DNA of 64,000 bases from Candidatus Hadarchaeota archaeon (GCA_964621445.1 CAZUNO010000002.1:32001-96000), one strand, 5' to 3'; positions 12,279-50,897 are shown, numbered from the stretch's first letter. The notes: generated from the sequence alone by a model not told the origin. Made by a program: numbers and translations.

Positions 12279-12389
12279 CCCCCTTCCAACAAAAAGGTGT
12301 ATTCGACAATACGTCTCCTCTCCGATATTCAGAGGCAGATGGAATAGCGGTCAAACAAGGCAAACACTATATAGACTGGCATTACCGAA

Positions 12390-35990: not shown

Positions 35991-36587
35991 GTGAAGATAA
36001 TGCTTAAGATAGAGAGGCAAAGGGAGACGAAGGAGACGGATGTATCCATTACCATGGATTTTGATGGATCCGGAAAATCCTCGATAAGTACCGGACTACC
36101 CTTCTTCGACCACATGTTAACCTCCATGGCCAGACATGGAAGGATAGACACCGAGATAGATGTTGAGGGGGATCTTGATGTAGACGACCATCACGTTACC
36201 GAGGACGTGGGAATAGTTCTCGGCGAGGTGATCCTGCAGGCCCAAAAGGAAAGACCCTCGATCCGACGCTTTGGGAGCGCCATAATACCCATGGATGATG
36301 CGCTTATACTCATGGCCATTGACCTTGGGGGCCGGACCTACGTGGATCTAAAGGTCGACTTCAAGAAGGAGTATGTCGGAAGCTTCGTCCTGGATAACAT
36401 CAAGCACTTCATGAGATCGATGGCCGATACCGCCTACATGAATCTCCATGCACACAAGTTATCGGGCAGCGACGATCACCACCTGGCGGAGGCACTATTC
36501 AAGAGCCTGGGAATAAGCCTCTCCCAAGCCCTGAAAAAGGATCCCTCACTCTCCGGAGAGATTCCCAGCACCAAGGGCAGGATCTAG
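35991..36587 (+). CDS. hisB: Imidazoleglycerol-phosphate dehydratase
   Basis: RETKETD, FFDHML, DDHHVTED, PMDDAL, DHHLAEALFK, PSTKG. Confidence 0.95.
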   Translation: MKIMLKIERQRETKETDVSITMDFDGSGKSSISTGLPFFDHMLTSMARHGRIDTEIDVEGDLDVDDHHVTEDVGIVLGEVILQAQKERPSIRRFGSAIIPMDDALILMAIDLGGRTYVDLKVDFKKEYVGSFVLDNIKHFMRSMADTAYMNLHAHKLSGSDDHHLAEALFKSLGISLSQALKKDPSLSGEIPSTKGRI

Positions 36588-37249
36588 GACGCTTCATTTC
36601 TTAGGGCTTTTAGGATAAGGAAAATGGCCACCCTTATCCCGCACCACACGGTAACCCCCCGCACGTACTTTTCATACTTTACCGGTACCTCCTTTACCCG
36701 TAGACCCTTGCGCCTCGCCTCGTACAGCAGCTCCGACTCTATCTCGTACTGGTTGGCGGTTAGGTCCATTCCTTCAAGAGCCGAGGCTCGTATGGCCTTC
36801 AACCCGCTCTGGCTATCCCTGACTGGGTTTCGAGTAATCGCATTGGTCAGCTTGGTAAGTCCCCAGTTCCCGATCCTCATGATAAGGGGCGCCGAATCGA
36901 AATAATTGACCCGGTTTCCCAGAACTATGTCCGCCTCGTCATTGAGGATGGGCTCCACCAGGTTGGGGATGTCACTCGGGTAGTGCTCGCCATCACCGTC
37001 AAGCCTTAGAATGATCTCGGCGTCGTATTCCTCCGCTTTCTCCAGCCCTTTCCTGTATGCTGATCCAACTCCCTGGTTCCTATCGATCTTGAACACCTTA
37101 GCCCCTCCCGCAGTCGCCTCCTGGGAGGATAGATCGGTGCTCCCATCATCGATCACTATAACGTTGTCCACATACTTTGAGGCCTCACGGGCTATTTCCT
37201 GAATGGTTTTCTCCTCGTTGTGGACCGGGATCACGCAAATGGTCTTCAA
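36584..37249 (-). CDS. GT2 polyprenol-phosphate glycosyltransferase (DPM1/ArnC-like)
   Basis: VIPVHNEEKTI, VIDDGSTD, NQGVGSA, LDGDGEH.P, DIVLGNR, DSQSGLKA. Confidence 0.9.
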   Translation of the reverse strand: MKTICVIPVHNEEKTIQEIAREASKYVDNVIVIDDGSTDLSSQEATAGGAKVFKIDRNQGVGSAYRKGLEKAEEYDAEIILRLDGDGEHYPSDIPNLVEPILNDEADIVLGNRVNYFDSAPLIMRIGNWGLTKLTNAITRNPVRDSQSGLKAIRASALEGMDLTANQYEIESELLYEARRKGLRVKEVPVKYEKYVRGVTVWCGIRVAIFLILKALRNEAS

Positions 37250-37297
37250 GTATAATCCCTTACCGTTTGGCTTGAAAGATATCCCGAAAATGCCACC

Positions 37298-37999
37298 TCA
37301 TTTTCTACTCCAGGCAGCGTCTGGTCCCTCATCCACTATCTTTCCATCAACTATGACCAAACCTCTCTTGCAATGCTTAAGAAAGTTGGGATCATGGCTT
37401 ACCGTGATAATGGTTACCCCCAGGTCCTCGTTTACCCTTCCCAGCAGCTCGTAAACCCTTTCCGATGACCTCGAGTCCAGATTTCCGGTCGGCTCGTCCG
37501 CCAGAAGTATTTTTGGATTATTCGCCAGTGCCCGGGCTATGGCAATTCTCTGTTGTTCCCCACCGGATAGCTGATCAGGCTTATTTAAAGCCCTCTGCTT
37601 GAGCCCGATCAACCCAAGCAATTCGCTGGATCTACTGCTCCTGGACTGGCTATCCTTACCTGATAGGACCATGGGGAATTCGATGTTTTCAACCGCGGTT
37701 AGGGTTGGTATGAGATTATATGACTGGAATACAAATCCAATGGTGTGCAGTCTAAGATCCGATAACTCGTCATCGGAAAGCTGTGAGGTATCGCGTCCGA
37801 ATATCTCTACCAGTCCCGAATTTGGTCTATCCAGACAACCCAAAACGTTCAGAAGGGTCGTTTTTCCGGACCCGGAAGGGCCGGAGACTAACACGAAATC
37901 AGCTTCATCTACACTCAAGCTTACTTCTAGGAGCGCTTCCACCTCGATTTCGCCCGCTTTGTAGATTTTTCGCACTTTACGAGTCTCTACTGCCTTCAA
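37298..37999 (-). CDS. ABC ATPase of the LolD/MacB type
   Basis: GPSGSGKTT, IGFVFQSYNLIP.LTA.EN, LSGGEQQR, LADEPTGNLD. Confidence 0.93.
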   Translation of the reverse strand: MKAVETRKVRKIYKAGEIEVEALLEVSLSVDEADFVLVSGPSGSGKTTLLNVLGCLDRPNSGLVEIFGRDTSQLSDDELSDLRLHTIGFVFQSYNLIPTLTAVENIEFPMVLSGKDSQSRSSRSSELLGLIGLKQRALNKPDQLSGGEQQRIAIARALANNPKILLADEPTGNLDSRSSERVYELLGRVNEDLGVTIITVSHDPNFLKHCKRGLVIVDGKIVDEGPDAAWSRK

Positions 38000-38020
38000 T
38001 TTGGCCCCTCAGGGAGCTGG

Positions 38021-38050
38021 GAAACCCTTTAAAAGTATTCTGATAAATAT
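38021..38050. promoter_or_regulatory. Overlapping divergent promoters between the ABC ATPase and the permease operon
   Basis: Plus strand GAAACCC-TTTAAAA (38021-38034), ~22 nt before ATG 38056. Minus strand ATATTTATC (38042-38050) upstream of the GAGGGG RBS and TTG 37999. Confidence 0.5.
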
Positions 38051-38055
38051 TCCCC

Positions 38056-39207
38056 ATGGCCGAGGCCCAATCGATCTGGAAGATGGCCTTTAGGAACCTC
38101 TCGAATCAGAACAAGACCACTATACTAACAGTGGCGGCCATAGCAGTCTGTGTGATGACCTTTGTCTCCATCTTCTCAATCCTCGACGGCCTCCAGTTGT
38201 CCGTTGAGAAGGTAATTAGAGGCTTCTACGGGGAGGAAGGTAGAAGTGCATATGTACTTCCCGCTTCGGATGAAATCGAACAGGGACTTATACCCCGTGC
38301 GGTGGCCGAGGAATATAGAGGACTTGATGATGTATACGGCCTTTCCGAGGAGGATGTGGTGAATTCTTACTACCAGGGAAGAGAGGTGGACCTTCTCGGA
38401 GTTAATCTGGATGACCTTGACGCCACCCACGGATTCCAGGGAATTGATGGCAGGAGCATGGAGAAGGGACCGGAATGCATGGTGGGCTCCACGGCCGCCG
38501 AAATACTTGGCATAGATGTCGACCAAGAGATATCATTGGAACTGGATGACAGCACCGTCGACCTTTTGGTTACGGGAATATACGAGGCCAAGACGTCCCT
38601 CAATGCGAATATCCTGGTGAATAACGAATTCCTTTCCTCCAGAATTCCCCGGTTTAAGGTCAATACCTCCATGCTGCGTATTAAGCTCAAGACGGGAAAC
38701 CTGGAATCGGTAGCCGAATTCACCGAGGAAAACCACCCCGAACTCAGAATCAAGGAATCTGTTCAGGTGAGCAAGTTCTTCCAGAAATCCATCATAAACA
38801 TCTCCCGCCTTCTCAGCACCATCATTATTTTCGTTATACTGCTGATGGTCCTTGGTATATACAATTCAATGAACATGGTGGTTTCGGAGCGAAAAAGGGA
38901 AATTGGGATAATAAGGGCTATGGGAGCCAGGAGGTCCTTCATAGTCAAACTGTTCATGGCCGAAAGTACTATGCTTTCACTTCTAGGGGGCTTATTCGGG
39001 GTCGGGTTGGGAATAGCCATGTCGCATGGAATCACATCGATCTTTTCCATCTTCGTTGCCGGTTCCTCATCTGTCGCTCCCCTCACCAAGCTCACCACCA
39101 TTGGCTGGGCCATGTTTGCCTCCCTGTCGATAGGGCTAATTGGAGGAATTTCCCCGGCAAGTAATGCCTCCAAGGTGGAAATCTCAAGAGCCCTCACGGA
39201 GGTGTGA
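38056..39207 (+). CDS. FtsX/LolE-type ABC permease with a MacB-like extracellular domain
   Basis: MAFRNL...TILT.AAIA, ECMVGSTAA..LG, VSERKREIGIIRAMGA, PASNASK. Confidence 0.92.
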   Translation: MAEAQSIWKMAFRNLSNQNKTTILTVAAIAVCVMTFVSIFSILDGLQLSVEKVIRGFYGEEGRSAYVLPASDEIEQGLIPRAVAEEYRGLDDVYGLSEEDVVNSYYQGREVDLLGVNLDDLDATHGFQGIDGRSMEKGPECMVGSTAAEILGIDVDQEISLELDDSTVDLLVTGIYEAKTSLNANILVNNEFLSSRIPRFKVNTSMLRIKLKTGNLESVAEFTEENHPELRIKESVQVSKFFQKSIINISRLLSTIIIFVILLMVLGIYNSMNMVVSERKREIGIIRAMGARRSFIVKLFMAESTMLSLLGGLFGVGLGIAMSHGITSIFSIFVAGSSSVAPLTKLTTIGWAMFASLSIGLIGGISPASNASKVEISRALTEV

Positions 39208-42200
39208 ACATAGAGAGCCGTCTTCTCCATGCCATGAAGATATTTCCTCGTCACAGAATGTGGCTATCCTTAGCCGGGATAATGGTATGCGCCATTCTCT
39301 TCTTCGGGGTGCTCTCCGTGGTTCACTGGCTTAGCTATTCCTCAACCTCCTACTTCGGAGAGCAAGAGGGCATATACGTACTGGCGCAGGAGGAGGCGGC
39401 CACCGTCAAACAATCACAAGTTCCCCTCGCCCTGGCTCCGGCACTAACCAGGATGAATGGAATCCAGGTGGTTTGCCCCGAACTCTTCATATATGGGGTG
39501 TTAAATGATAAGGCTGTCATAATCCGTGGGATATTCCCATCGGATTTCCAATCACTTGAACCGGTCACCCTGATTCAAGGGCGGTGGCTCAGGGACGACG
39601 ATATCAAGGCCGCCGTGGCTGGCCAGAATCTAGCCCGAAAACTGGATCTGAAGGTGAACGATACCTACCTGCTTTCAGGATCCGAGGTTGATGACTTCGT
39701 CAGGATCAGGATCGTGGGCATCTTCAAGGGAGGGGGAATGATTGATGACGACCTACTCATGAACATACACTACGCCAGGTATCTCCAACAGGAAACACAA
39801 CCCGGTTATGCCTCAATAATCCGGGCCAAGGTCAACACCACCATCTGGCCCAGCGTAGAAAGCATCTGGCAATCGGTCAGCGGACTTCCCAATATAACGC
39901 CGCTCCAATATGAACCAACTGCTCCCAACAACACCCAGAGACTGCATTTCACCTGCAATGCCACAGCTCATACCGAAGTGGGCTCGGTCATACTCTACTA
40001 CAAAAAGCAGGGTCTCCATCGCACAATCCAAAAGACCATGATAAAGGGAAATTCAAGTCAGTTTAGGACCCAGATCGGCCCTGTGAAGGACTCCTCATGG
40101 GTACTTTGTTGGGCCAACGCCACTGATATTTTGGGCCACGATCGACGGACGCCTGAGGTTAACATCTCAATAACAGATGCCCTGGGACCGGACATATTCG
40201 ATCTGACAATTGAACCGCCCCCGCCCCAGACAAAGGATCACCTGGTAAACGTCTCCTTCAAGGTATTCGATACAAGCGAAATGGTCAGGAACGTAACCGT
40301 CCACACATATAATGTTGGACTTAATCGTACATTCCACGGAAAGGACTCCACGGGGCGGGCTTACGAGCTAACCCTGGGAAGGTTTGAACCGGGACCATTG
40401 ACCCTTTGGATATCCGCCCGGGATAGATTCGGCAATCTGGCACGAACGGCTCGATACAGGTACAGGATCCTCAATAGGACCGATCAATCCCCTCCCGAAA
40501 TAGGTGAGATGGTATTCGAGCCTGACCCCCCGAATGACAACTCCACCCTGACCGTGAACGTTCCAATGTTCGATGACTCAGAGATCGTTACCGCCGACCT
40601 TATCTATGACTATCAGGTCAAGGGCATTCACTACAATGGGACCCTTAAGATGAATAGAAGCCAGGCCCAGGAGGGCCTTTGGGAAGCGGTAACCGGTTCC
40701 TTTCCGGGTGCCACAACGATTCATTTCAGGATATTCGCCAGGGACCAATTCGGGAACGCCGTATACTCGGAGACCAGGGATGTATTCGTGAGATACTCGG
40801 AGCCACCGGAGGAGCTCCAGGTCTACAGATTCCCCCAATATTCCACTCCCGGCCTCAATAATCTGGTATTCGCCGTTCTCTACGACGCGGCGGAGATCCA
40901 GGAGGTCAACTTCACCTTCGTGGAAGCGGGTAGATGGACCAACCTCTCCATACCCGTGGGGATAACTACCTTTAGGGAACCCTTTCTCCTGGGGCGCCTA
41001 TCAACCGGGTTCAAGGAATATAATCTCTCCATGGAGGACAGGCGGGAAGAGGTGACCAGATATCCAGGACAGGGACTGGAAGGGTTCCTTGTTCAGCGAA
41101 AAAGACCCCACATAGAGGATATACAGTATTCCTCGACTGTAAGGAAGGGCTTTCCCCTAATGGTGACCTTCAGGGCAGTCGGCGTCTTCCCACTAAGCGA
41201 GGTATATACCACCGACTCCAGAGGGGTAGTGGAAAAATGCGAAAGGATTGAGGGTGAATATACCGCGATCCTGGGTCCATACTCCAAGCCGGGTGACTAC
41301 TCCTTCAGTATAACTACCCAGGACTGGGCGGGCAATACACGGACCATTGAAGACCGGGAATTCACCGTAGAGGAGGAATCGATAACCGATATCGACTTCA
41401 CGCCAAAACCGCCCATTCTGGGAGAGGAGCTAACCGTGACCTGTAGGGTGATCGGGGACTCTCCCCGCAAGAAGGTCCGGCTCATAGCACCTGTGGGCGG
41501 CAAGTACGTGTTGACTCCAATGGAATTGGAGGAGGGGAGGAGATTCGCGTCCATACCCATCGATAGCCCTGGTATTCTACCCTTCTCGGTACAGGTCGAG
41601 GATGGAGAGGATCTGATACGCTCAAAAACCGTACGGCTTAACGTCGGTTCCAACCACTCATCATTGTACCTGGCTCACAGCCCACCCCATCCTCTGAGTA
41701 CCCAGAATATAACAATCTCCATCTTTGCCAGGTCGGGTCATAACCTGAAATCGCTGGAACTGGAATGGAAAAATGGATCCCACGAGATTCCACATCGCAA
41801 GGTCTGGAGGCTAGAGGGGACGGAAACGAGATTAGACTTCAAACCGGGAAGGCAAATAGAGGGGACCCTTCTTTACAGGGCAATTCTTACCACTGAAATG
41901 GGTAGCCTTACCTATCCCCTGACGGAGGACGAGTGGCTCGGGATCTCCATCACCAAAAACCTGTTTACCCCCCCGGAAATTGGAAGATTATCCCTATCCC
42001 CCCAGACTTACGTGGGACTGGATGGGAACAGGGGACAGGATTTCCTTGTTGAGGTCGGTTGCCCAATTTCCTTTGACCAGGGTATATCCTCGGTTGAGAT
42101 AGATTACGTGGTAGACCAGAGAACCTATAACGAGCCACTCCTACCGGTTTCCCGGAAATACGGGCTCTCCTCAAGGTTTTATTCAGCCTATCTCGGTCCC

Positions 42201-45200
42201 TTCCCCACCAACGAGACCATAAGTTGTCAGGTCACTGCCAGAAGCATCTCGGGATTGGAATCCTCCACCCCGGAGGTGAGCTATGTCCTCCGGGATACGG
42301 AACCTCCGGAGATACAGGATATATATCACGACCCCCTACACCCTGAACCCAAAAAGGAAATAACCATTGGGTGCGAGGTAACCGATGACTCGGGTGTCAA
42401 GGACGTTTTGCTGCTGTACGGCGGCAATGGCACCCAAAATGCAGAGCGCATGATGCGGTACGGAAATACCTACACTCTGGACCTTCTCTCCCCGCCCGCG
42501 GGCGAATCCCTCACCTATGCAATACAGGCCACGGATAACTACGGCAACAGCAACCAGTCCTTGCCGGGTACCGTTACCTCTAGGGACGAAACCCCACCCG
42601 ATATATGGGAGGTCACCCATGACCCGCTGGAACCAACGGATAATGACAGCGTCAACATAACCGTCCGACTCATCGATCGGCAGGATGAAATCGAAAACGT
42701 GACCCTACTCTGGTACCAGTACACCTGGAAGAACCAGACCAAGAAGGGGGGCAGCGGGTACATTACCAGGGTATTCCAGATCGATGCCTCTGAGTTTGAC
42801 CCGGGAATGAACGTACGGTACAAGATCGAGGCCTTTGACCGTTCGGGAAACAAGGCGGTCTACCCCAACGTAGAGCAGGGAGAAACGCCTCCTTCTCCAC
42901 TTCTCTATGGCGATAATCCTAATTCCCTGAGACAGGAAGCATGGGAACCCTATCTCACCTTCCGGGTTGTCGACAGATCCCCTCCCGTTCTCACCCTTGA
43001 TGCCCAGCCCGAAAGTCCAAATGAACTTGAAACCGTTACCTTCGAGGTGTCAGCGGAGGACAATCACCTTCTCAGGAACTACACGCTTCACCTATGGGTG
43101 TCAGGGGTTTACAGGCCTTTCAGCGAGCAGGTAGGTCGTCCTAGCTTCAGGGACGAGTTCTCCTCCGGTCCCCTAGAACCGGCATCCACCATAGTTTGCT
43201 ATCTTGAGGCATACGACAGGTCCGGTAATTATGCCCGGTTTCCGGCTCGCTCCAACCTTACCATAGATGTGGAGAGGTTCGAATGGGGAGGCGAGATGGC
43301 CGCCGTCGATCCCAGGGTTGACCTTGAAGTCGCCGGCCCGGCCGGTTTTTCTCAGGGAATGGCCAGACAGGGAGCGGGAAAGATAATCGCCAGCATAAAT
43401 GGCATCCTTTTCATGACCTTTCTGGCCACCGTGGCCGGCATCGGCAATATAGTCTACACCTCGGTTTTCAAATCGAAGAGGGAAATAGGCCTGGTCCGAA
43501 CATTAGGGGGGAGCAAGAAATTCGTCACCCTTCTGGTGGCCTCGGTTACCGTCCTGCTGGGCCTGACCGCTGCCTTGATCGGGTGTGTAATTGCCTACCT
43601 GCTGATAACGGTGTTTTCTAACCTAGGAGCCTCCCTTGCCTGGGTCACCTTGAAGCCCACATTCAATATCCTTATTCTGGCAGCGACTTCAGCGGCCGCG
43701 GTGACCATTAGCCTCTTCGGTGGAATGGTAGCCCTTACCAGGCTTTTTTCATATACCCCTGTGGAATCGATAAGGACGGTGACCGCGCCCCAAGCGAAGA
43801 GGGAGCATCCAACCTACATCGAGAATACAAGGCGTTTCCCCGCAAAGACCATCGCCGTTTTACTCCTCATCACCATTAGTGCCGCTGCCATGATGCGCCT
43901 ATATCCTACATATATCTCCGAGCAGCCCTTCGATCCCGATTCCTGGTTGCACCTAACCGCTGCATCCGATATGCGGGAGACCGGCCATCTGAGACTCGAT
44001 TACGCTTCCCGGGAAATGCAGGCGGTCAGCGCCCTCCCTGGCCTCAACATCCTGCTGGTCGTATCCCAGGTATTGACCGGGAGCGAGATGATCCCAGCGA
44101 GGATCATAACCCCCATCATATCATCACTTGGCTTGATCCTGGCCTTTGTACTGGCCAGGAAACTCTCCAGGAGCGATATCGTGGCAGGAATGACCGCGAT
44201 CATACTGGCAGTGGTTGGCTTTTATGCCAACCGAACGGCAGCGCTTACCAAGGAGGCCCTCGCACTCCAGATGCTCCTACTCTGCCTCTACATGTTATAC
44301 CTAAGCCACATCTCCAGAAGCACCAAGCACAAGACTCTGCTAGTTGCCATTTCCGTTGCCCTGATGCTGACCCATCACCTAACGGCCATCTATTTCATGC
44401 TGATTTTTGTGGGATACATCTTTCTGAGAATCTTCCACAAGTATTCCCAGGGTGTCATCGACCCCCTGGAGGTCAAGCAGGATGCCCTAACCGGTCTTGG
44501 GGTCCTAACCAGCTATCTTATCATCAGCTTCACCCTGGGCAAGTACGAAACTCCGATACCATTCCAGGACTCCCTTCTGATAATATCCCTGTTCTTCGTG
44601 ACCATCGGATTCGGAAGAATTTTGCTTTCGTCATCATTCTTGGGCCAGCACCGGAGATCTATATCCCTGGTCGCAGCCCTGGGTACGGTTACCTTCCCCT
44701 TCATCGCCTACCGCGCCGGGCTCTTCTCCTACGCACCATGGGAACAGGTCCTCCCCATGATAGCCCCCCACTTGTCCCTTCTGGCCATAGCGATCCTGGC
44801 CCTGTTCCCGGTCTCCCTGCTCTCAGAAAATCGAAAGTCCTTCATCTTGGCCTGGGCCTCTGCCGTGATTCCCTTCCTATTATTTGGACTTGTCAAAAGG
44901 GATATCTTCGGCTACATACTGCTCTTCAGGAACATCTCATACGGTTATCAACTATCGGCCATATTGGTAGGCATCGCCTTCGTCTATGCCTACAAGCGTT
45001 TCGAGGCCGGAGGTCAGGATGGAATCCGCACCGGGCTGGTTGCCATAGCCGCGGTGCTCCTCATGACCAACCTTCTATTCGCCTCCCACATGGGTTTTCT
45101 GTCCCGCCCTTATGAGAAGAAGGACCTATACACGACCACGGAGTTCAACGCGGCCTTGAAGGTGAACCAATCAACCCTAAGAGGTCAGCTGGTAGGGTCG

Positions 45201-45500
45201 GACGAACGTGGTCGCCGGCTTCTATTGTACGTAACTGGGGAGGATGGAGACCAGATCACGACCTACGTCTATATGATCAGGATGGAAAAATGGTTAATAA
45301 ACAGGCTTAACGAACAGGTCAACTTGACCGAGAAGCCGCTGACCCATATCCTCACCTATGACGAGATGTTTGAGGTCGGTTTCGTGGATCAGGTACTGTT
45401 CAAGGATGTGGAAAGGCTAGAGCTCAATCGATATGAGGACGTCATTCTGGACAACGGCGGTGAACACCTCATTTACGTGGCCAGGAAGGAATGGCCGTAG
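39204..45500 (+). CDS. 2098-aa fusion: TM + MacB head + ~11 Ig-like repeats + FtsX permease + GT-C-like membrane glycosyltransferase
   Basis: QGRWL...VAGQNLARKL; repeats D..PP.I...P..P...V.D...A.D..GN (~39890-43290); KREIGLVRTLGG (~43476); DPDSWLH...ETGH (~43932), KEALAL, LTHHLT and more than 10 further TM segments. Confidence 0.85.
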   Translation: MNIESRLLHAMKIFPRHRMWLSLAGIMVCAILFFGVLSVVHWLSYSSTSYFGEQEGIYVLAQEEAATVKQSQVPLALAPALTRMNGIQVVCPELFIYGVLNDKAVIIRGIFPSDFQSLEPVTLIQGRWLRDDDIKAAVAGQNLARKLDLKVNDTYLLSGSEVDDFVRIRIVGIFKGGGMIDDDLLMNIHYARYLQQETQPGYASIIRAKVNTTIWPSVESIWQSVSGLPNITPLQYEPTAPNNTQRLHFTCNATAHTEVGSVILYYKKQGLHRTIQKTMIKGNSSQFRTQIGPVKDSSWVLCWANATDILGHDRRTPEVNISITDALGPDIFDLTIEPPPPQTKDHLVNVSFKVFDTSEMVRNVTVHTYNVGLNRTFHGKDSTGRAYELTLGRFEPGPLTLWISARDRFGNLARTARYRYRILNRTDQSPPEIGEMVFEPDPPNDNSTLTVNVPMFDDSEIVTADLIYDYQVKGIHYNGTLKMNRSQAQEGLWEAVTGSFPGATTIHFRIFARDQFGNAVYSETRDVFVRYSEPPEELQVYRFPQYSTPGLNNLVFAVLYDAAEIQEVNFTFVEAGRWTNLSIPVGITTFREPFLLGRLSTGFKEYNLSMEDRREEVTRYPGQGLEGFLVQRKRPHIEDIQYSSTVRKGFPLMVTFRAVGVFPLSEVYTTDSRGVVEKCERIEGEYTAILGPYSKPGDYSFSITTQDWAGNTRTIEDREFTVEEESITDIDFTPKPPILGEELTVTCRVIGDSPRKKVRLIAPVGGKYVLTPMELEEGRRFASIPIDSPGILPFSVQVEDGEDLIRSKTVRLNVGSNHSSLYLAHSPPHPLSTQNITISIFARSGHNLKSLELEWKNGSHEIPHRKVWRLEGTETRLDFKPGRQIEGTLLYRAILTTEMGSLTYPLTEDEWLGISITKNLFTPPEIGRLSLSPQTYVGLDGNRGQDFLVEVGCPISFDQGISSVEIDYVVDQRTYNEPLLPVSRKYGLSSRFYSAYLGPFPTNETISCQVTARSISGLESSTPEVSYVLRDTEPPEIQDIYHDPLHPEPKKEITIGCEVTDDSGVKDVLLLYGGNGTQNAERMMRYGNTYTLDLLSPPAGESLTYAIQATDNYGNSNQSLPGTVTSRDETPPDIWEVTHDPLEPTDNDSVNITVRLIDRQDEIENVTLLWYQYTWKNQTKKGGSGYITRVFQIDASEFDPGMNVRYKIEAFDRSGNKAVYPNVEQGETPPSPLLYGDNPNSLRQEAWEPYLTFRVVDRSPPVLTLDAQPESPNELETVTFEVSAEDNHLLRNYTLHLWVSGVYRPFSEQVGRPSFRDEFSSGPLEPASTIVCYLEAYDRSGNYARFPARSNLTIDVERFEWGGEMAAVDPRVDLEVAGPAGFSQGMARQGAGKIIASINGILFMTFLATVAGIGNIVYTSVFKSKREIGLVRTLGGSKKFVTLLVASVTVLLGLTAALIGCVIAYLLITVFSNLGASLAWVTLKPTFNILILAATSAAAVTISLFGGMVALTRLFSYTPVESIRTVTAPQAKREHPTYIENTRRFPAKTIAVLLLITISAAAMMRLYPTYISEQPFDPDSWLHLTAASDMRETGHLRLDYASREMQAVSALPGLNILLVVSQVLTGSEMIPARIITPIISSLGLILAFVLARKLSRSDIVAGMTAIILAVVGFYANRTAALTKEALALQMLLLCLYMLYLSHISRSTKHKTLLVAISVALMLTHHLTAIYFMLIFVGYIFLRIFHKYSQGVIDPLEVKQDALTGLGVLTSYLIISFTLGKYETPIPFQDSLLIISLFFVTIGFGRILLSSSFLGQHRRSISLVAALGTVTFPFIAYRAGLFSYAPWEQVLPMIAPHLSLLAIAILALFPVSLLSENRKSFILAWASAVIPFLLFGLVKRDIFGYILLFRNISYGYQLSAILVGIAFVYAYKRFEAGGQDGIRTGLVAIAAVLLMTNLLFASHMGFLSRPYEKKDLYTTTEFNAALKVNQSTLRGQLVGSDERGRRLLLYVTGEDGDQITTYVYMIRMEKWLINRLNEQVNLTEKPLTHILTYDEMFEVGFVDQVLFKDVERLELNRYEDVILDNGGEHLIYVARKEWP

Positions 45501-46310
45501 GTGCTTGTCTTGGAGAGATCTTTGGCCATCAGAGTAGACATCGACACCATCAAGGGGCTCTTGGATGGGGTCCCCATTCTACTGGACATGTTCGACGACC
45601 TGGGAATCCAGGCCACGTTTTTCGGCTGTGTGGGGCCGGATAAGACCTCGAGAAGTTTCCTGCAAGCTCCGCGAATCGCCAGGCATGTTTCCGTAAATCC
45701 CCTGAAAAAATTCGGGCTCCGTGAAATCATGGGTTCCATTAAAGGCCTTGATTTCCGCAAGCATGACGGGGAACTGAGGGAGATCCAGGAAAGGGGCCAC
45801 GAACTACAGCTCCACGCCTTCGATCATCTGGATTGGATAAAAAGGGTGGAGAACCTTGACCTATCGGGGACCAGGTCACTTATCGAGAGGGGCATACGTA
45901 GCTTTGAGGCAATCACCGGCAGGAAACCCCGGGGTTTCGCATGTCCAGCCTTCAGGGTTACGGAGAATGTCCTGCTGGCTGAACAGGAGCTGGGATTCGA
46001 CTATGCAAGCGATTATCATGATCTTCTGAGGACTGTTCCCTTCAAGCCGCAGGAATCATCGGTTCTACAGATACCGGTGAACGCTCCTCTGATAGAAGAT
46101 ATGGTAGCAAAGGGTTTGAGCGATGCGCAAATACTATCCAGGCTCAAAAACATTGTAGATCAAACCCCGCTGACCGTGTTTTATCTACATCCCTGCTATG
46201 AGCCTCGGCTAAAAGGGGACCTACTGAGGGATTTCATAGAACAGGCCCTGGAAAAGGCCCGTCATGTGAAATTTTGGGAGGTGTGGAAAAGCTGGAGTCA
46301 TTGCGCATAG
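45501..46310 (+). CDS. ArnD-family lipid-linked amino-sugar deformylase/deacetylase
   Basis: IRVDIDT..G...GVP.LL, VGPD, HELQLHAFDH..W, QIPV..P and F.LH...E match the ArnD motif order (RIDVDT, VGPD, HEVGLHAWDH, QIPVTLP). Confidence 0.85.
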   Translation: MLVLERSLAIRVDIDTIKGLLDGVPILLDMFDDLGIQATFFGCVGPDKTSRSFLQAPRIARHVSVNPLKKFGLREIMGSIKGLDFRKHDGELREIQERGHELQLHAFDHLDWIKRVENLDLSGTRSLIERGIRSFEAITGRKPRGFACPAFRVTENVLLAEQELGFDYASDYHDLLRTVPFKPQESSVLQIPVNAPLIEDMVAKGLSDAQILSRLKNIVDQTPLTVFYLHPCYEPRLKGDLLRDFIEQALEKARHVKFWEVWKSWSHCA

Positions 46311-47464
46311 TGATGATCTACGAGCTGGGACCTAAGGACGACGGTTCATTTCTCGGTGGCATAGAGTCCCACATACTGGGTCTTGCCAAGGAGCTAGCTC
46401 ATGACCATCAGGTAACCATTCTAACCGGCGCCATACCGGGGGAGAGAGATAAAACTGATCTCGATGGGCTGAATGTCATTAGATCCGATATCATGGGAAT
46501 GGTTTCTCGATCCTGGAACCCCACCAACCTTACAACGAGGCGACAGATCTTCTCCACCCCCGCCTTTCTAAGGACGGGAATCGACCTGGATGCCGACATT
46601 TACCACGGACATATTTACACCTCGGGGATTTCAGCTCTGGGCCTGGCATCGCTTGGTTCCGGTGGTTCGGTTAACACCATACACGGGTCCTACTATGACC
46701 ACTGGGAATCAATTACCAACTCGAGCCTCAAACCCCATGCCTACAGAGTGGCCGAGAGATTATTGGCAACGTTCCTAGCTCGCAATTGCGATAGACAGAT
46801 ACACACGGCAACCGATTTCGCGGTTAAGGTCAGGCAGTGGGGGGCACCGCAAGAAAAGGTCCAGGTAATACTCAACGGGGTTGATACCGATAGATTCTCA
46901 CCTCAGGTAAATCCCCGCGAACAATCGGACATACCAATAGTGATGACGGTTCGTCGGTTGGTACCCAAGAACGGGGTCCACCATTTCATCCAGGCCTGCA
47001 GCCATTTGGAGAGGGAATCTAGATTCGTTATAGTTGGCGATGGTCCTTCCAGACCGGGTCTAGAGTCGCTGGCGAGGAGGATAGGGGTGGACGACCGGGT
47101 TGAATTCCGTGGCGCAATTCCCAACAACCAGATGCCAGGAATCATCGCCGGTGCCGACGTGTTAGTTATCCCCAGTTTGGTCGAGGCCTCCAGCATATCC
47201 CTATTGGAGGCAATGGCCATGGCAAAGCCAACGGTGGTCACCAACATACCGGGCATCGACGAGGTAGCAAGTCCGGAGAGAAGCATCATGGTTCCACCCG
47301 GGAACCCCGAGGCCATCGCAACGGGCATTGATCACCTTCTATCCGATAGGAAGAAAGCGAGGGAACTTGGAAGAAAAGGACGAGAATACGTGGTCGCTAA
47401 TCGATCCATCAAGAAGATGACGGAGAAAACAATGATCATCTACCGCCAGGCACTCGAGTCCTAG
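46301..47464 (+). CDS. GT4 glycosyltransferase
   Basis: GGIESHI, NGVDTDRF, RRLVPKNG, PSLVEASSISLLEAMA; TTG start with GGAG RBS. Confidence 0.92.
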   Translation: MRIVMIYELGPKDDGSFLGGIESHILGLAKELAHDHQVTILTGAIPGERDKTDLDGLNVIRSDIMGMVSRSWNPTNLTTRRQIFSTPAFLRTGIDLDADIYHGHIYTSGISALGLASLGSGGSVNTIHGSYYDHWESITNSSLKPHAYRVAERLLATFLARNCDRQIHTATDFAVKVRQWGAPQEKVQVILNGVDTDRFSPQVNPREQSDIPIVMTVRRLVPKNGVHHFIQACSHLERESRFVIVGDGPSRPGLESLARRIGVDDRVEFRGAIPNNQMPGIIAGADVLVIPSLVEASSISLLEAMAMAKPTVVTNIPGIDEVASPERSIMVPPGNPEAIATGIDHLLSDRKKARELGRKGREYVVANRSIKKMTEKTMIIYRQALES

Positions 47465-47838
47465 ACCCTGGACAGCAGGATCAAGGCCAGTATACCACAC
47501 CCGATCCCTGCCGCTATCCTCAGATCTACCTCCTCGCCCAGCAATACAACGCATAGAACCGCGAACAGGACGTTTCCCAGGACAATAACCAGGTTCAAGC
47601 CCAGTACGGCAGGTACATCGTTTGACAGGAAAGCCAGATCCACCGCCAAAACCACCAGGCCCATCAGAAGAACAAGGTAGACATATGGATTTCTAGCCAG
47701 GGAGAAAAGAAAGGATGGGCTCAGGACCTGGGATAGCGAGGTTTCGTCGAGCTTATCCGCTGCAACCTTGTGAAAAAAGAGATTAAGACCACTAAGCACT
47801 CCAGCAACTATGGCGAATAATAGGATCTTACCCTGCAA
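47461..47838 (-). CDS. EamA/SMR-like 4-TM protein (ArnE/ArnF-like flippase candidate)
   Basis: 125 aa, 4 TM helices, ending VLLGEEVDLRIAAGIGCGILALILL (EamA-type end). Confidence 0.7.
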   Translation of the reverse strand: MQGKILLFAIVAGVLSGLNLFFHKVAADKLDETSLSQVLSPSFLFSLARNPYVYLVLLMGLVVLAVDLAFLSNDVPAVLGLNLVIVLGNVLFAVLCVVLLGEEVDLRIAAGIGCGILALILLSRV

Positions 47839-47840
47839 GT

Positions 47841-48656
47841 TTAGCCCCCCGAGGCTTCAGCCGCCCTCTCCTGGCTGGACTCCACCCTCCTAAACACGAA
47901 GAACCAGAAAACGAAGATCCAACCTATAAAGAACACGAAACCAAAATAGTCATGGAAGGTCTTCATGGCCTCAAACCCTATATAATAGGTTATGAGAGAA
48001 AGAACCACTATCCTCACTATATTGGCCGAGTAGGTCCCGGCCGCCCCCACAAGGAAGTAAACGCTACCCATCTTCTTGTCCATCCTATCCCTGAGATCAA
48101 CCAGCATCATGGCGAAGAAAGCCAGGAACAGGAAGGAGGAATGGATCCCCGAACAGGCCTCAGTAACCAGAAGGGTCACCGGCCGAGAGTGGTCGGGGGC
48201 TGAAAGAACTATCTCGTTTCCTGCTCCCGAAAAGGGAATACCCATCATGCTCAGCACCGCCCTGGAAAAATACATCACGTTTCCAAGCCAGGCCCTGCCG
48301 AAAGAGGTCTCCAGTATGTACTTATCGAATCCAATGGTTATCAAGAAATAAAAAACCAGAACCGGGGTAACGAAGAAGTAAAGCAAAGTCCGATAACGTA
48401 GCAGAAAATCGTACTCCCGCGACAGATAGCGATAGGCCAGGAACAAGGAACCGATCCCCACAAAAACCAAGCCGGACGCAACAGCCAGATCAGAGGAACG
48501 AACACGCTGGAAAAGGACGTATGAAACAAGCGCAAAAGCCAGGTACCCATAACCGAGGATCGAAACCTGAGAGAACGACACATTCTCCTTTATGGCGGAG
48601 ACCGGCCTCATAGAGATGAAGGACAGCGTATATCTAATAAATGGCTTGCGAATCAC
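47841..48656 (-). CDS. Archaeosortase/exosortase-family transpeptidase
   Basis: Polytopic protein with the triad motifs VTEACSG (Cys), ANIVRI (Arg) and FHDYFG (His). Confidence 0.9.
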   Translation of the reverse strand: MIRKPFIRYTLSFISMRPVSAIKENVSFSQVSILGYGYLAFALVSYVLFQRVRSSDLAVASGLVFVGIGSLFLAYRYLSREYDFLLRYRTLLYFFVTPVLVFYFLITIGFDKYILETSFGRAWLGNVMYFSRAVLSMMGIPFSGAGNEIVLSAPDHSRPVTLLVTEACSGIHSSFLFLAFFAMMLVDLRDRMDKKMGSVYFLVGAAGTYSANIVRIVVLSLITYYIGFEAMKTFHDYFGFVFFIGWIFVFWFFVFRRVESSQERAAEASGG

Positions 48657-48662
48657 TTTGGT

Positions 48663-49520
48663 TTATAAATCCAACCAGGGCCGGAGTAGAAATGTGCAAA
48701 ACAGCAGACAGCCAAGAGGAATTGCTATCACTATTACCAGGGGCAGGTCTCTCTGGGGCAGGGTACCTGCCTTGATTATCTTGATCGCTTCTGGGTCAGT
48801 AACCCCCTTCTCCTGCATTTTTTCTAGCAAAGCGGTGAGTTGCCAATAGTACGAGGTGAAACTCACAAATGCCGTAAACTCGCTCTCGACCCCTTCTGGA
48901 GGGCTATCCAGCTTGACCGCTTCCCGGTAAGCATCTCTAATGGCCATTGCCTTCTCCCGGTTTTTGCCTATCACGGTTTCATAACTGGGATAATCAAACA
49001 CCGTATTCCCCACCACCATGTACGAATCGCCCTGGATAACTATGGTTTTGCTAGGCATGAAATTGTATTGAGAACCAGAAACTGCAGATCTCACACCCAC
49101 CAGGCAGAGCATCACTATTGAGAAATATACCAGATCACGCCAGGCCGCATTCCAGCCCTTTCTCGAGGGGCACCTAAGGTAGATCAAGGCGATGACGCAC
49201 ACTAATAGTGCCAAAGCAGAAACGGTCACCGGGGGGTCCAGCAGGCCATTGCCGAGGCGGAACTTCTGGCCCAAGAGGTTCAGAACATCGTGGAAAAAAA
49301 ATAGATTGAGCAACGGCCCGGTGTCCAATTTCCCGTCTCCGTAAAGCCGAGTTATTTGTGGAAATACCGCCAGGGACCCCAGTGTGGACACGACTACTGC
49401 CACTCGGTAGGAACTGATCTCGGGGTTATCCTCCTCCCTCCTCTTTGGAATAGAAATTCCAAAGATGATCAAGCAACACCCCACGATCGCGCCGAAAAAG
49501 AAATGCGCGAGAGGATTCAT
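48663..49520 (-). CDS. Membrane protein, N-terminus resembling membrane metal-dependent hydrolases (degenerate)
   Basis: LAHFFFGA, LAVFPQ and NLFFFHDVL; several TM helices, a soluble loop and a C-terminal TM. Confidence 0.5.
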   Translation of the reverse strand: MNPLAHFFFGAIVGCCLIIFGISIPKRREEDNPEISSYRVAVVVSTLGSLAVFPQITRLYGDGKLDTGPLLNLFFFHDVLNLLGQKFRLGNGLLDPPVTVSALALLVCVIALIYLRCPSRKGWNAAWRDLVYFSIVMLCLVGVRSAVSGSQYNFMPSKTIVIQGDSYMVVGNTVFDYPSYETVIGKNREKAMAIRDAYREAVKLDSPPEGVESEFTAFVSFTSYYWQLTALLEKMQEKGVTDPEAIKIIKAGTLPQRDLPLVIVIAIPLGCLLFCTFLLRPWLDL

Positions 49521-49631
49521 TGAAATGAAGCAGCCGACTGGGCTGATTAATATTTCACCGGCATTAAATCAAAGGTAATAGCTTCAAATCCACGGGCTCT
49601 CGATACATTTAAGAGATAAATCGAGCCCCGT

Positions 49632-50897
49632 TTGCCTGGGATGGGCCGCAAGAAAATAATCATTCTAGGTATGGGTAGGATAGGGCTACCCACTGCTGCA
49701 TGTCTAGCCAACGCTGGTCACCAGGTACTTGGAGTCGATATAGATCAACGAAAGGTTGCCGATATCCGCGAGGGGAGGATAGATGGCAAGGAACCTGGAT
49801 TATCCGAAATGGTACTATCGGCCATGGAGTCGGGGACCCTCCGCATTTCAACGGAGCCGGTCCGGGGCGACGTATTCCTGCTTTGCCTGCCCACCCTGCT
49901 CAAGGAGGATAGGACATGTGATCTATCGGCCATTTCCTCCGCGATGGACTCCATATCAAATGTCATCTCGCCGGGCAATCTGATTATCCTGGAATCCACC
50001 GTGCCGGTACATACCACCCGGGATTTCCTGATACCTGGGCTGGAAAAGAGAGGAGTGGACACCTGTAAGGTGCTCTTCGCTTATGCCCCGGAGAGAATAA
50101 TGTCGGGAAGAATGCTGGAAGAGATAAGGAAGGATGACCGGATAATCGGTGTCACAAGTGAAAAGGCTGCAAAACTAGCCAGAGAGGTGTACGAGAGCTT
50201 CGTTGAGGGGGACATTTTCATTACCGATACCTCCACGGCCGAATTGGTGAAGCTCGCGGAAAACACCTACAGAGACATAAACATAGCTTACGCCAACGAG
50301 GTCGCCCTCTTCTGTCAGCGGGAAGGGATCGATGCCCGACGTGCAATAGAGCTGGCCAATAGGCATCCCCGGGTTGAGATACATCGCCCAGGACCCGGAG
50401 TTGGAGGCCACTGCATACCCGTGGTCCCTCATTTCCTGGCCCAGAATAATAGCTACGATATGATGATAAAAGCGGCGAGAAAAGTAAACGAATCCATGCC
50501 GAGATATATAGCCAACATGATAACCAGGACCATAAGCGGAGCGGAGCAACCAAAGGTCTCCCTTATGGGCATGGCCTATAAGTCCGGCTCAGGGGACACC
50601 GTAAACAGCCCGGGATTACAGATTCTGGAGCATCTCCAGGGTGAGAGGATGGAAATTCTCCTATGCGACCCACTTGTAAGAAACCAGGAAATGGACCTTG
50701 TGGAAATGGAGGAGGCCCTTTCATCGGACTGCATCGTCTTTCTAGTCGCCCATCAGCAATTCAAGGAAATTGATCCACCCAAACCCAAGAAGGCCATGGC
50801 GACCGTCATAGATACCGCAAACTGCATAGAGCCGCGGAAATGGATCCGGCAAGGCTGGAAAATTAAACGTTTCGCATCCAAGAATCCTAAGGCTTAA
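49632..50897 (+). CDS. Nucleotide-sugar dehydrogenase (UDP-HexNAc 6-dehydrogenase, WecC/WbpA-like)
   Basis: GMGRIGLP, ESTVP, APER, KLAENTYRDINIA.ANE, PGPGVGGHCIP. Confidence 0.9.
   Translation: MPGMGRKKIIILGMGRIGLPTAACLANAGHQVLGVDIDQRKVADIREGRIDGKEPGLSEMVLSAMESGTLRISTEPVRGDVFLLCLPTLLKEDRTCDLSAISSAMDSISNVISPGNLIILESTVPVHTTRDFLIPGLEKRGVDTCKVLFAYAPERIMSGRMLEEIRKDDRIIGVTSEKAAKLAREVYESFVEGDIFITDTSTAELVKLAENTYRDINIAYANEVALFCQREGIDARRAIELANRHPRVEIHRPGPGVGGHCIPVVPHFLAQNNSYDMMIKAARKVNESMPRYIANMITRTISGAEQPKVSLMGMAYKSGSGDTVNSPGLQILEHLQGERMEILLCDPLVRNQEMDLVEMEEALSSDCIVFLVAHQQFKEIDPPKPKKAMATVIDTANCIEPRKWIRQGWKIKRFASKNPKA

Follow-up and report, generated by a model that had tools for sequence, protein, structure and literature searches.

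A 64,000-nucleotide stretch of DNA from a Candidatus Hadarchaeota archaeon (GCA_964621445.1, CAZUNO010000002.1:32001-96000), referred to here as the window, encodes on its plus strand, at 39204..45500, a single protein of 2098 amino acids (aa) in which a predicted MacB-type ATP-binding cassette (ABC) permease carries a giant array of immunoglobulin (Ig)-like domains and is joined at its C-terminus to a glycosyltransferase domain of the GT-C fold. The architecture of this protein, the folds of its parts, the conservation of the fusion, the genes around it and an unfused form in another archaeon point to a transferase of surface glycans that depends on a dolichyl-phosphate-linked sugar and is physically attached to a MacB-type ABC complex, a reading that we regard as probable. 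On that basis we also propose which subunits pair, which sugar donor and acceptor they would serve and how ATP hydrolysis might be coupled to transfer.

A permease split by a giant insert

The frame at 39204-45500 (+) runs for 2098 codons with no stop, which confirms the one uninterrupted open reading frame announced in a preliminary description of this DNA. Its listed start is a GTG at 39204, in a 4-nt overlap with the stop of an upstream gene for a 383-aa permease; in the alignment of nine orthologues the called starts match Met11 of the giant protein, an ATG at 39234, which may be the true start of the gene instead.

Residues 1-220 (39204..39863, +) hold the first transmembrane helix and a MacB-like extracytoplasmic core, matched by Pfam MacB_PCD on residues 20-198 at 49.6 bits (gathering cut-off 27). 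Residues ~1390-1518 (43371..43757, +) hold transmembrane helices 2 to 4, matched by Pfam FtsX on residues 1401-1518 at 35.9 bits (gathering cut-off 25.5). Hydropathy places one membrane segment at ~22-40 and three at ~1394-1515, the 1+3 topology. Both pieces are paralogous by BLASTP to the 383-aa permease, residues 21-214 to its residues 24-206 (E 3e-5) and residues 1401-1508 to its residues 256-365 (E 3e-7), and since they are collinear with this paralogue, the protein contains an ordinary MacB-type permease that is split by ~1130 aa between the end of the extracytoplasmic core and the second transmembrane helix. The Pfam positions and the paralogy thus place the insert where it had been proposed to lie, between the extracytoplasmic head and the FtsX helices, and the permease part of the fusion is, as judged from its sequence, of the MacB/FtsX type (type VII).

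A basic, Arg/Lys-rich linker, residues ~1519-1541 (43758..43826, +), connects the permease to the GT-C domain. It is predicted to be cytoplasmic, because four permease helices precede it, and the GT-C domain would therefore start with its N-terminus inside and turn its first loop outward, as in GT-C enzymes.

Conservation of the full-length fusion

Nine proteins of 2074-2109 aa, the window's own and those of eight other assemblies (ncbi, ena, jgi and lgn records), carry the same Pfam pair and are 55-69% identical across the GT-C part. Their full-length alignment has a mean column identity of 72%, with invariant residues throughout the linker and both adjoining domains, and the residues conserved in the wider GT-C family are invariant in all nine orthologues. 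The fusion is present in four of the five genomes of the phylum that were examined, the window's own genome (G000) included, and in all three other genomes of the same family; with the fusion as query it was not found in G001, a 98% complete genome from another family of the phylum. Open frames of 2099-2130 aa occur in G002 and G003, and one relative is labelled Candidatus Hadarchaeota. A search for related loci with the single protein as query gave one, L003.

Contigs of two runs, X1 and X2, tile the giant gene with 0 differences. They bridge both junctions for which read coverage had been singled out as a check, near 43290 and 43800, and reveal no stop or misassembly there; the X1 contigs concerned span 41950-43617 and 43603-43941 at a depth of only ~5, and the runs may represent the source sample. 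Misassembly is, for practical purposes, excluded.

The C-terminal GT-C domain

The glycosyltransferase domain occupies residues 1542-2098 (43827..45497, +), where hydropathy gives ~11-13 hydrophobic segments at 1549-1961 followed by ~130 soluble residues, corresponding to a C-terminal soluble domain of ~120-130 aa. An AlphaFold2 model built with a 68-row family alignment reached a predicted local distance difference test score (pLDDT) of 90.2 and a predicted template-modelling score (pTM) of 0.92. Searched against the PDB with Foldseek, this model gave 25 matches at E≤0.001, and the 33 top-ranked rows listed were all of the GT-C fold, led by STT3, PglB and AglB (E 7.6e-10 to ~5e-6, TM-score 0.49-0.59) and followed by DPY19, ArnT, AftA and ALG12. 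The VIA aligner superposed 455 residues on yeast STT3 with a Z of 31.1 and a root-mean-square deviation of 4.3; the comparisons with STT3, AglB and PglB spanned Z 31.1-23.6 over 437-475 aligned residues. Individual values were 29.4 for A. fulgidus AglB, 24.7 for PglB, 23.0 for ALG12, 20.6 for Pmt, 20.1 for AftD and 19.5 for ArnT, and the whole range across STT3, AglB, PglB, ALG, Pmt, AftD, DPY19, ArnT and Emb was 31.1 to 12.7. The stretch DPDSWLH...ETGH, on which the preliminary description had based its proposal of a GT-C-like domain, is present after a transmembrane helix at residues ~1577-1596, and the proposal itself is sustained by the matches to STT3, AglB and ArnT and by the acidic residue that this stretch contains.

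That residue, D1579, is the conserved acidic residue of the first extracytoplasmic loop and is kept in 65 of the 68 aligned family members. Other strongly conserved positions are K1683 (62/68), E1684 (57/68), H1724 (66/68) and H1725 (61/68) and, towards the C-terminus, R1909 (66/68), D2000 (62/68) and G2059 (65/68). When the family profile was compared by hhalign with the genome's own 656-aa AglB, the match (94.3%, E 1e-7, 152 columns) paired FDPDSW with MDPDAF and TKE with DKE of that protein.

Several results pull away from this assignment. Residues 1538-2098 matched no Pfam family at E≤10 and no NCBIfam model at E≤1, so that no family model names the domain, and the Pfam STT3 (PF02516) and ArnT/PMT_2-type (PF13231) models were without a match to it in the same E≤10 scan. 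The family profile met 14 weak matches among PDB sequences, with no GT-C chain among them, the best (E 0.0034) pairing the soluble tail with PAS domains. Against the other AglB of the genome (714 aa) hhalign gave only 53.9%; the position of the second acidic motif of oligosaccharyltransferases, D-x-D/E after transmembrane helices 3-4, reads TKE; and WW[DE]xG, a motif of their soluble domain, occurs in none of the 68 aligned members, nor does the query contain a WWD. On these motifs, an STT3-like catalytic mechanism cannot be taken for granted. As modelled, the domain is a GT-C-fold enzyme that lies structurally nearest to the oligosaccharyltransferases, yet is not one by their defining motifs. 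By ESM Atlas features, which we take as a lead only, it falls with archaeal clusters whose automatically assigned names include RgtA/B/C/D-like. A complex prediction of residues 1375-1545 (FtsX transmembrane helices 2-4) with residues 1546-2098 (the GT-C domain) scored 0.01, with a mark of 0.32, and says nothing either way.

Canonical STT3/AglB-family genes, which the Pfam STT3 model does recognize, occur twice in G000, head to head on another contig, C32 (L007, 1402-3546, +; L008, 847-2817, -), and encode the proteins of 714 and 656 aa.

The Ig-like array

The insert consists of ~11 tandem beta-sandwich domains resembling Ig or fibronectin type III (FN3) domains, at residues ~229-1356 (39888..43271, +). 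An AlphaFold2 model of residues 200-1399, with the nine-orthologue alignment as input, has a mean pLDDT of 73 and a pTM of 0.45 and is all-beta between ~229 and 1356. The model suggests about 11 sandwich units of 90-108 aa, with approximate boundaries, by our reading of the strand pattern, at residues 229-324, 327-424, 434-531, 535-631, 635-724, 726-815, 818-919, 929-1029, 1035-1126, 1132-1221 and 1249-1356. The best Foldseek matches in the PDB are Ig/FN3-type arrays (E 2.6e-24 to 1e-13), a thick-filament chain being first at E 2.6e-24, and further array matches include GhpA, contactin-2, mastigoneme and the alpha-2-macroglobulins; in Pfam, Big_13 stayed below threshold (19.2 bits, cut-off 27). 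The strand pattern and these matches agree with the earlier count of ~11 Ig-like repeats. A DNA-level repeat search found nothing besides one 21-nt pair and self-BLASTP of the insert found no significant repeat pair; the Ig-like domains are therefore old and divergent.

The whole protein has 34 N-x-S/T sequons, 28 of them within residues 221-1365, where shuffled sequences hold 7.9±2.5 and reached 28 in none of 2000 shuffles; the richness in sequons noted beforehand is thus borne out. The inserts of the nine orthologues contain 21-28 sequons each, with many positions common to all nine, and this excess fits an extracellular, N-glycosylated location of the array. The further idea that the array forms a long stalk that could reach the S-layer fares less well: because both of its ends are anchored near the membrane, one at the end of the extracytoplasmic core and the other at the helix leading into the second transmembrane segment, the array would form a loop or hairpin and not a free rod.

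Shorter fusions, unfused forms and the wider GT-C family

Relatives of the GT-C domain were collected by an exhaustive phmmer search of 1.84 billion representatives, which yielded 106 matches at E≤0.001, 12 at ≤1e-10 and 4 at ≤1e-30. Most of them stand alone at ~500-560 aa. Among the 27 of the 106 that were examined with Pfam, 17 had no family at all, 4 had PMT_2 below threshold (18.7-23.6 bits, cut-off 26.1) and 3 had MacB_PCD together with FtsX, namely P0010 (2095 aa), P0011 (1121 aa) and P0065 (817 aa), the last with an FtsX score of 23.8 bits, under the cut-off of 25.5. The remaining three are fused to a GT2 domain (P0104, 1119 aa), to a MatE-family transporter domain (P0110, 1061 aa) and to DUF1616 (P0105), respectively. 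The GT2 and MatE fusions are Rosetta-stone hints, read from domain content, that the GT-C family works in lipid-linked-sugar pathways.

A shorter version of the permease fusion, ~1106-1127 aa long with an insert of ~260 aa, is known from five proteins, including one whose record is named only 'ABC transporter permease [Theionarchaea archaeon]'. In a quick IQ-TREE analysis of 40 GT-C domains this ~1120-aa group is sister to the clade with 11 Ig-like domains, with a support of 97 in the SH-like approximate likelihood ratio test, and the 817-aa P0065 falls nearby at no settled position. FastTree gathers all fused forms into one clade, with supports of 89 and 95 and a long-branch warning, and the approximately unbiased test does not reject such a clade (p 0.297), which is no proof of one. 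Judged from these trees, the link between permease and GT-C domain is older than the group of 2098-aa proteins. The metagenome contigs scanned for the ~1120-aa fusion contained no relative of it, and a profile of this fusion searched against 301 archaeal genomes matched mostly ordinary FtsX permeases, with the exception of G153. An 817-aa frame in G028, considered as a GT-C fusion, was rejected, being a duplicated FtsX permease.

The G153 locus has a divergent ATPase gene and then, on the other strand, genes for two permeases, of 338 and 1411 aa, and for a GT-C protein of 518 aa, in that order and with overlaps of 4 nt between successive genes. The 1411-aa permease carries a giant insert, with FtsX at 1273-1389 and 57 sequons, and the stand-alone GT-C protein matches the family profile at E 2.6e-101 to 3.1e-101. 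Its sequence belongs to a different subclade, where P0023 and P0046 are nearest. By gene order and domain content, the G153 operon is the arrangement of the window with its last joint unfused.

The GT-C family profile has matches at E≤1e-15 in 45 of the 301 archaeal genomes. In two of them, G217 and G297, the GT-C gene has an ABC ATPase gene on one side and, on the other, a pair of genes whose products (323-339 and 385-386 aa) are unnamed in Pfam and have a 1+3, MacB-like topology; the longer product shows weak similarity to the extracytoplasmic cores of P0001 (E 5.5e-5) and P0011 (E 1.65e-5). The ABC link, on this sequence comparison, is recurrent but limited to part of the GT-C family, most members of which appear to stand alone.

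Further observations concern the same families. DUF1616 genes lie upstream of the permease-like, GT-C and ATPase genes at L023 (G217, 11747-13256) and L024 (G297, 12366-13871), and, given the direct DUF1616/GT-C fusion in P0105, this gene order suggests that DUF1616 may be another conserved partner of the GT-C family. Giant-insert MacB-like permeases were found in two other archaeal genomes, G153 and G245; that of G245 (L022, G245:C39, 4568-8761, -) is 1397 aa long, has signals resembling CarboxypepD_reg and bacterial alpha-2-macroglobulin MG3 in its insert and lies beside genes for a permease of 385 aa, a protein of 923 aa that belongs to no family and a GT2 of 559 aa. G000 itself has a second, weaker match to the GT-C profile in a 632-aa frame (C5:119147-120226, +; E 6.5e-17) and a short weak one with an in-frame TGA (C5:154705-155094, -).

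Gene neighbourhood

The fusion gene belongs to a cluster that spans 36584-50897, delimited among genes scanned from 32885 to 63548, those outside it being housekeeping genes. Two divergent genes precede the permeases. At 36584..37249 (-) lies a GT2 glycosyltransferase of 221 aa (Pfam Glycos_transf_2, 3.4e-25), a probable polyprenyl- or dolichyl-phosphate sugar synthase that matches NCBIfam AglJ (8.5e-35), PpgS (3.1e-26), dolichyl-phosphate hexose transferase (3.5e-20) and ArnC (2e-8), all under their equivalog cut-offs, and is 78-79% identical to its counterparts at the L003 and L009 loci. At 37298..37999 (-) lies an ABC ATPase of 233 aa of the LolD/MacB/FtsE type (Pfam ABC_tran, 4.8e-31), in whose translation the Walker A, signature and Walker B motifs are readable; its NCBIfam matches, again under the equivalog cut-offs, are LolD (4.9e-68), the MacB nucleotide-binding domain (4.8e-67) and FtsE (4.5e-62), and its gene adjoins the permeases also at L003, L009 and L020. 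The 383-aa permease at 38056..39207 (+), a probable heterodimer partner of the fusion, is of MacB/LolC type (Pfam FtsX 3.8e-17, MacB_PCD 4.4e-11), and its matches among PDB sequences are MacB, YtrF, LolF and LolC/E.

Downstream, at 45501..46310 (+), follows an ArnD-like enzyme of the polysaccharide-deacetylase family (269 aa; Pfam Polysacc_deac_1, 1.1e-11), which covers positions 4-259 of the 294 in the NCBIfam ArnD profile at 3.2e-29, with 102 bits against a cut-off of 382, and is conserved at L003 and L009. A syntenic GT4 glycosyltransferase of 396 aa occupies 46274..47464 (+; Pfam Glycos_transf_1 2.6e-33, Glyco_transf_4 6.4e-19). The small protein of 125 aa encoded at 47461..47838 (-), whose translation has four transmembrane segments and is SMR/EamA-like, is a candidate flippase for lipid-linked sugar of the ArnE/F kind and is 62-69% identical at L003 and L009. 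A syntenic protein of the archaeosortase/exosortase family (271 aa; Pfam Exosortase_EpsH, 2.7e-17) at 47841..48656 (-) reaches 57 bits for the NCBIfam exo_archaeo signature (cut-off 23) and 60.5 bits for ArtC, under the cut-off of 100. It is followed by a syntenic membrane protein of 285 aa with no significant family at 48663..49520 (-), ~40% identical at L003 and L009, and by a member of the UDP-glucose/GDP-mannose dehydrogenase family (421 aa, three Pfam UDPG_MGDP_dh domains) at 49632..50897 (+).

From HisA to the tRNA-splicing endonuclease, the gene order is kept for 13 of 14 genes at L003 and 12 of 14 at L009; in the examined part of L009 neither the endonuclease nor the UDP-glucose dehydrogenase was found, and the dehydrogenase is present at L003. 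No ArnA- or ArnB-like gene was found among the genes scanned. It is the flanking ArnC/AglJ-like, ArnD-like and small SMR-like genes, which the preliminary description had passed over, that say most about the chemistry of the cluster.

Likeness to known systems

In the Arn pathway, which runs through ArnC, ArnD, ArnE/F and ArnT, a lipid-linked sugar is made inside, flipped and transferred outside. In FtsEX, a MacB-type ABC motor controls the activity of an external enzyme and does not serve transport. A sugar-lipid that is made inside, flipped and transferred outside is also described for AglD, AglR and AglS of Haloferax in passages of PMC3871713, and the relevant passages of PMC9671496 describe, for PpgS/Rv3779, the modification of arabinogalactan with galactosamine by way of a lipid-linked GalNAc that is flipped and deacetylated before GT-C transfer. 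The cluster of the window resembles these modules in bringing together a GT2 synthase homologue, an ArnD-like deacylase, a small SMR-like protein and a GT-C protein, joined in the window and at L003 by a UDP-sugar dehydrogenase, which was not found in the examined part of L009. It differs from Arn-type modules in that the ABC motor is built into the transferase and in that its scanned neighbours include no ArnA/ArnB-like gene.

The ABC genes have the general make-up of LolCDE and other heterodimeric type VII systems, with two paralogous 1+3 permeases that have an extracytoplasmic core and an ATPase like LolD, MacB or FtsE. Unlike LolCDE, one permease has the Ig-like insert of ~1130 aa and a C-terminal enzyme of the 13-transmembrane class, the host is an archaeon without an outer membrane or Lol pathway, and all equivalog cut-offs are missed. 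By analogy, the closest functional parallel may be FtsEX with its activators EnvC, PcsB and RipC, in which a MacB-type motor serves an external enzyme; FtsEX acts through a bound soluble peptidoglycan hydrolase, whereas the candidate effector here is a membrane-embedded glycosyltransferase covalently joined to the permease, with coupling proposed. AglB, STT3 and PglB share with the GT-C domain the best structural match, the aligned acidic motif of the first external loop (hhalign) and the conserved Arg1909, whose role is assumed by comparison, and they differ from it in that it has no Pfam STT3 match, no WWDxG and a soluble domain of only ~120 aa. Like the arabinosyltransferases AftD and Emb, the protein combines a GT-C core with many extracytoplasmic beta-sandwich modules; theirs belong to the GT-C polypeptide region itself, whereas here they are inserted in the fused permease.

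A proposed mechanism and its alternatives

We propose that the 2098-aa protein serves as one of the two permease subunits in a heterodimeric machine of the MacB (type VII) kind, similar to LolCDE, where it would probably assemble with the 383-aa permease and with the LolD-like ATPase in two copies. Three indirect indications suggest this pairing, namely the paralogy, a gene order that two further genomes of the family share and the operon of G153, where the genes are unfused. The N-glycosylated loop of ~11 Ig-like domains would sit between the extracytoplasmic core and the second transmembrane helix, and the GT-C domain, a distant relative of AglB/STT3, would be joined to the cytoplasmic C-terminus of the permease with its active-site loop outward. 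On the cytoplasmic side the GT2 enzyme would charge dolichyl phosphate with what is probably an N-acetylated amino sugar, the ArnD-like enzyme would deacylate the lipid-linked sugar, and its passage to the outer leaflet would fall to the SMR-like protein or perhaps to the ABC unit. There the fused GT-C domain would hand the sugar to a surface acceptor, for example an S-layer glycan or another envelope glycoconjugate, and ATP hydrolysis would move the extracytoplasmic domain and the Ig array, in a manner like that of FtsEX, and thereby bring the acceptor or the lipid product into position or set it free. That the whole of this holds, with a LolCDE-like motor tied to a GT-C transferase in a dolichyl-phosphate-sugar pathway and handling the acceptor or product, seems to us a matter of even balance.

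What counts against the proposal comes from several sides. The geometry between domains in the array model is unreliable (pTM 0.45); the 125-aa protein reaches Pfam EamA only at E 0.22, and its 0.95 to SMR/EamA clusters by ESM Atlas features is a lead only; and every NCBIfam pathway match lies under its equivalog cut-off, so that the sugar is not fixed by them. In the neighbourhoods of 18 GT-C loci (G153 and rows 6-22 of the 51 places listed), a home-made FtsX profile detected a permease at one, G153, and an ABC ATPase (E≤1e-20 to that of the window) lay within ~8 kb at three, G153, G217 and G297. With so few ABC neighbours, most members of the GT-C family would work without an ABC partner, and ATP coupling would therefore not be intrinsic to the enzyme. 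G245, finally, has a giant-insert MacB-like permease without a nearby GT-C gene.

Some of these findings invite other explanations. The ABC heterodimer could carry dolichyl-phosphate-sugar to the outer leaflet, or extract it from there, and pass it straight to the GT-C domain, perhaps also removing the spent dolichyl phosphate, with the Ig array as an acceptor binder or shield. The ABC genes are placed where comparable clusters have their ArnE/F or GtrA-type flippase genes; MacB-type systems such as LolCDE handle lipid moieties of the outer leaflet; and the MatE/GT-C protein P0110 is a transporter fusion that arose in a different subclade. Yet MacB-type transporters are not known to move substrates across the bilayer, the conserved SMR/EamA-like gene with four transmembrane segments could already supply the flippase, and most GT-C family members have no ABC neighbour. 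We consider such channelling of the donor unlikely, if the strongest of the alternatives.

A little less likely again is that the GT-C domain acts alone, or is even catalytically inactive, and that fusion merely secures its co-expression or co-localization with an ABC system devoted to something else, such as export or protection against envelope-active compounds. The many relatives of ~500-560 aa that stand alone would suit this, as would the G245 permease; it sits poorly with the retention of the full-length fusion in nine assemblies with the family-conserved residues invariant, with the occurrence of fusion in a second lineage and of adjacent, unfused genes in three further cases, and with the glycan-pathway genes that flank the ABC genes in conserved order.

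It is improbable, in our estimate, that, as in LolCDE, a surface protein with a lipid anchor, perhaps an archaeosortase substrate, is extracted by the ABC unit and glycosylated by the GT-C domain, with the Ig array as its docking platform. The archaeosortase-family gene inside the conserved cluster, the LolC/E/D-like character of the permease pair and ATPase and the protein-glycosylating activity of the best structural relatives, STT3, AglB and PglB, speak for such a role; the sequon-binding motif WWDxG, however, is found in 0/68, two canonical AglB genes exist elsewhere in the genome, the archaeosortase match is under the ArtC cut-off, and no substrate with a sorting signal was identified in the cluster, where no search was aimed at one. 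That the fusion is an artefact, a misassembly or lost stop codon having joined separate genes, has a negligible chance of being true: G153 does keep the giant permease and the GT-C protein as separate genes, the window comes from an assembly of 89 contigs, and the X1/X2 contigs have a depth of only ~5, but against this stand eight further full-length orthologues from four source collections, the 2099-2130-aa frames of G002 and G003, X1 contigs that cross both junctions without differences (from runs that may be the source sample) and the linker and both flanking domains kept in the nine-way alignment.

Significance for the archaeal envelope

A surface-glycan transferase tied to a MacB-type ABC complex would bear on how glycosylation outside the cell is powered. 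GT-C enzymes act on the outer face of the membrane and are thought to draw energy only from the lipid-phosphate-sugar bond, and MacB-type ABC systems are the known route by which the energy of ATP reaches that face mechanically. Full-text searches, the coverage of which left out subscription journals and supplements, found no published description of such a fusion, and literature searches of the same coverage found nothing relevant on MacB mechanotransmission in archaea or on Hadarchaeota glycosyltransferases. The permease and the GT-C part each belong to a known kind. New to us are the conserved way in which they are combined, the unnamed GT-C family and the notion that external glycosylation might be coupled to ATP. 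At least one public record files a fusion simply as 'ABC transporter permease', and the GT-C family that emerges from the analysis is mostly archaeal and has no name in Pfam or NCBIfam among the members scanned.

The module is fused in at least two lineages and encoded by adjacent genes in others, and its conserved covalent ABC/GT-C fusion would make it an obvious place to test whether glycosylation outside the cell is gated or coupled to energy, a case strengthened by the unfused operons, the adjacent Arn/Agl-like donor pathway and the giant glycosylated Ig array. The boldest form of the proposal, a recurrent archaeal module in which a MacB-type motor energizes a GT-C transferase and an Ig array that handles the acceptor, so as to make an ATP-powered machine for external glycosylation, is tentative and in our view rather doubtful. 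The genes of the cluster are candidates for envelope biogenesis in an uncultured archaeal lineage, and if that form of the proposal is true, the module would feed energy to an extracellular glycosylation step in a place where nucleotide is absent.

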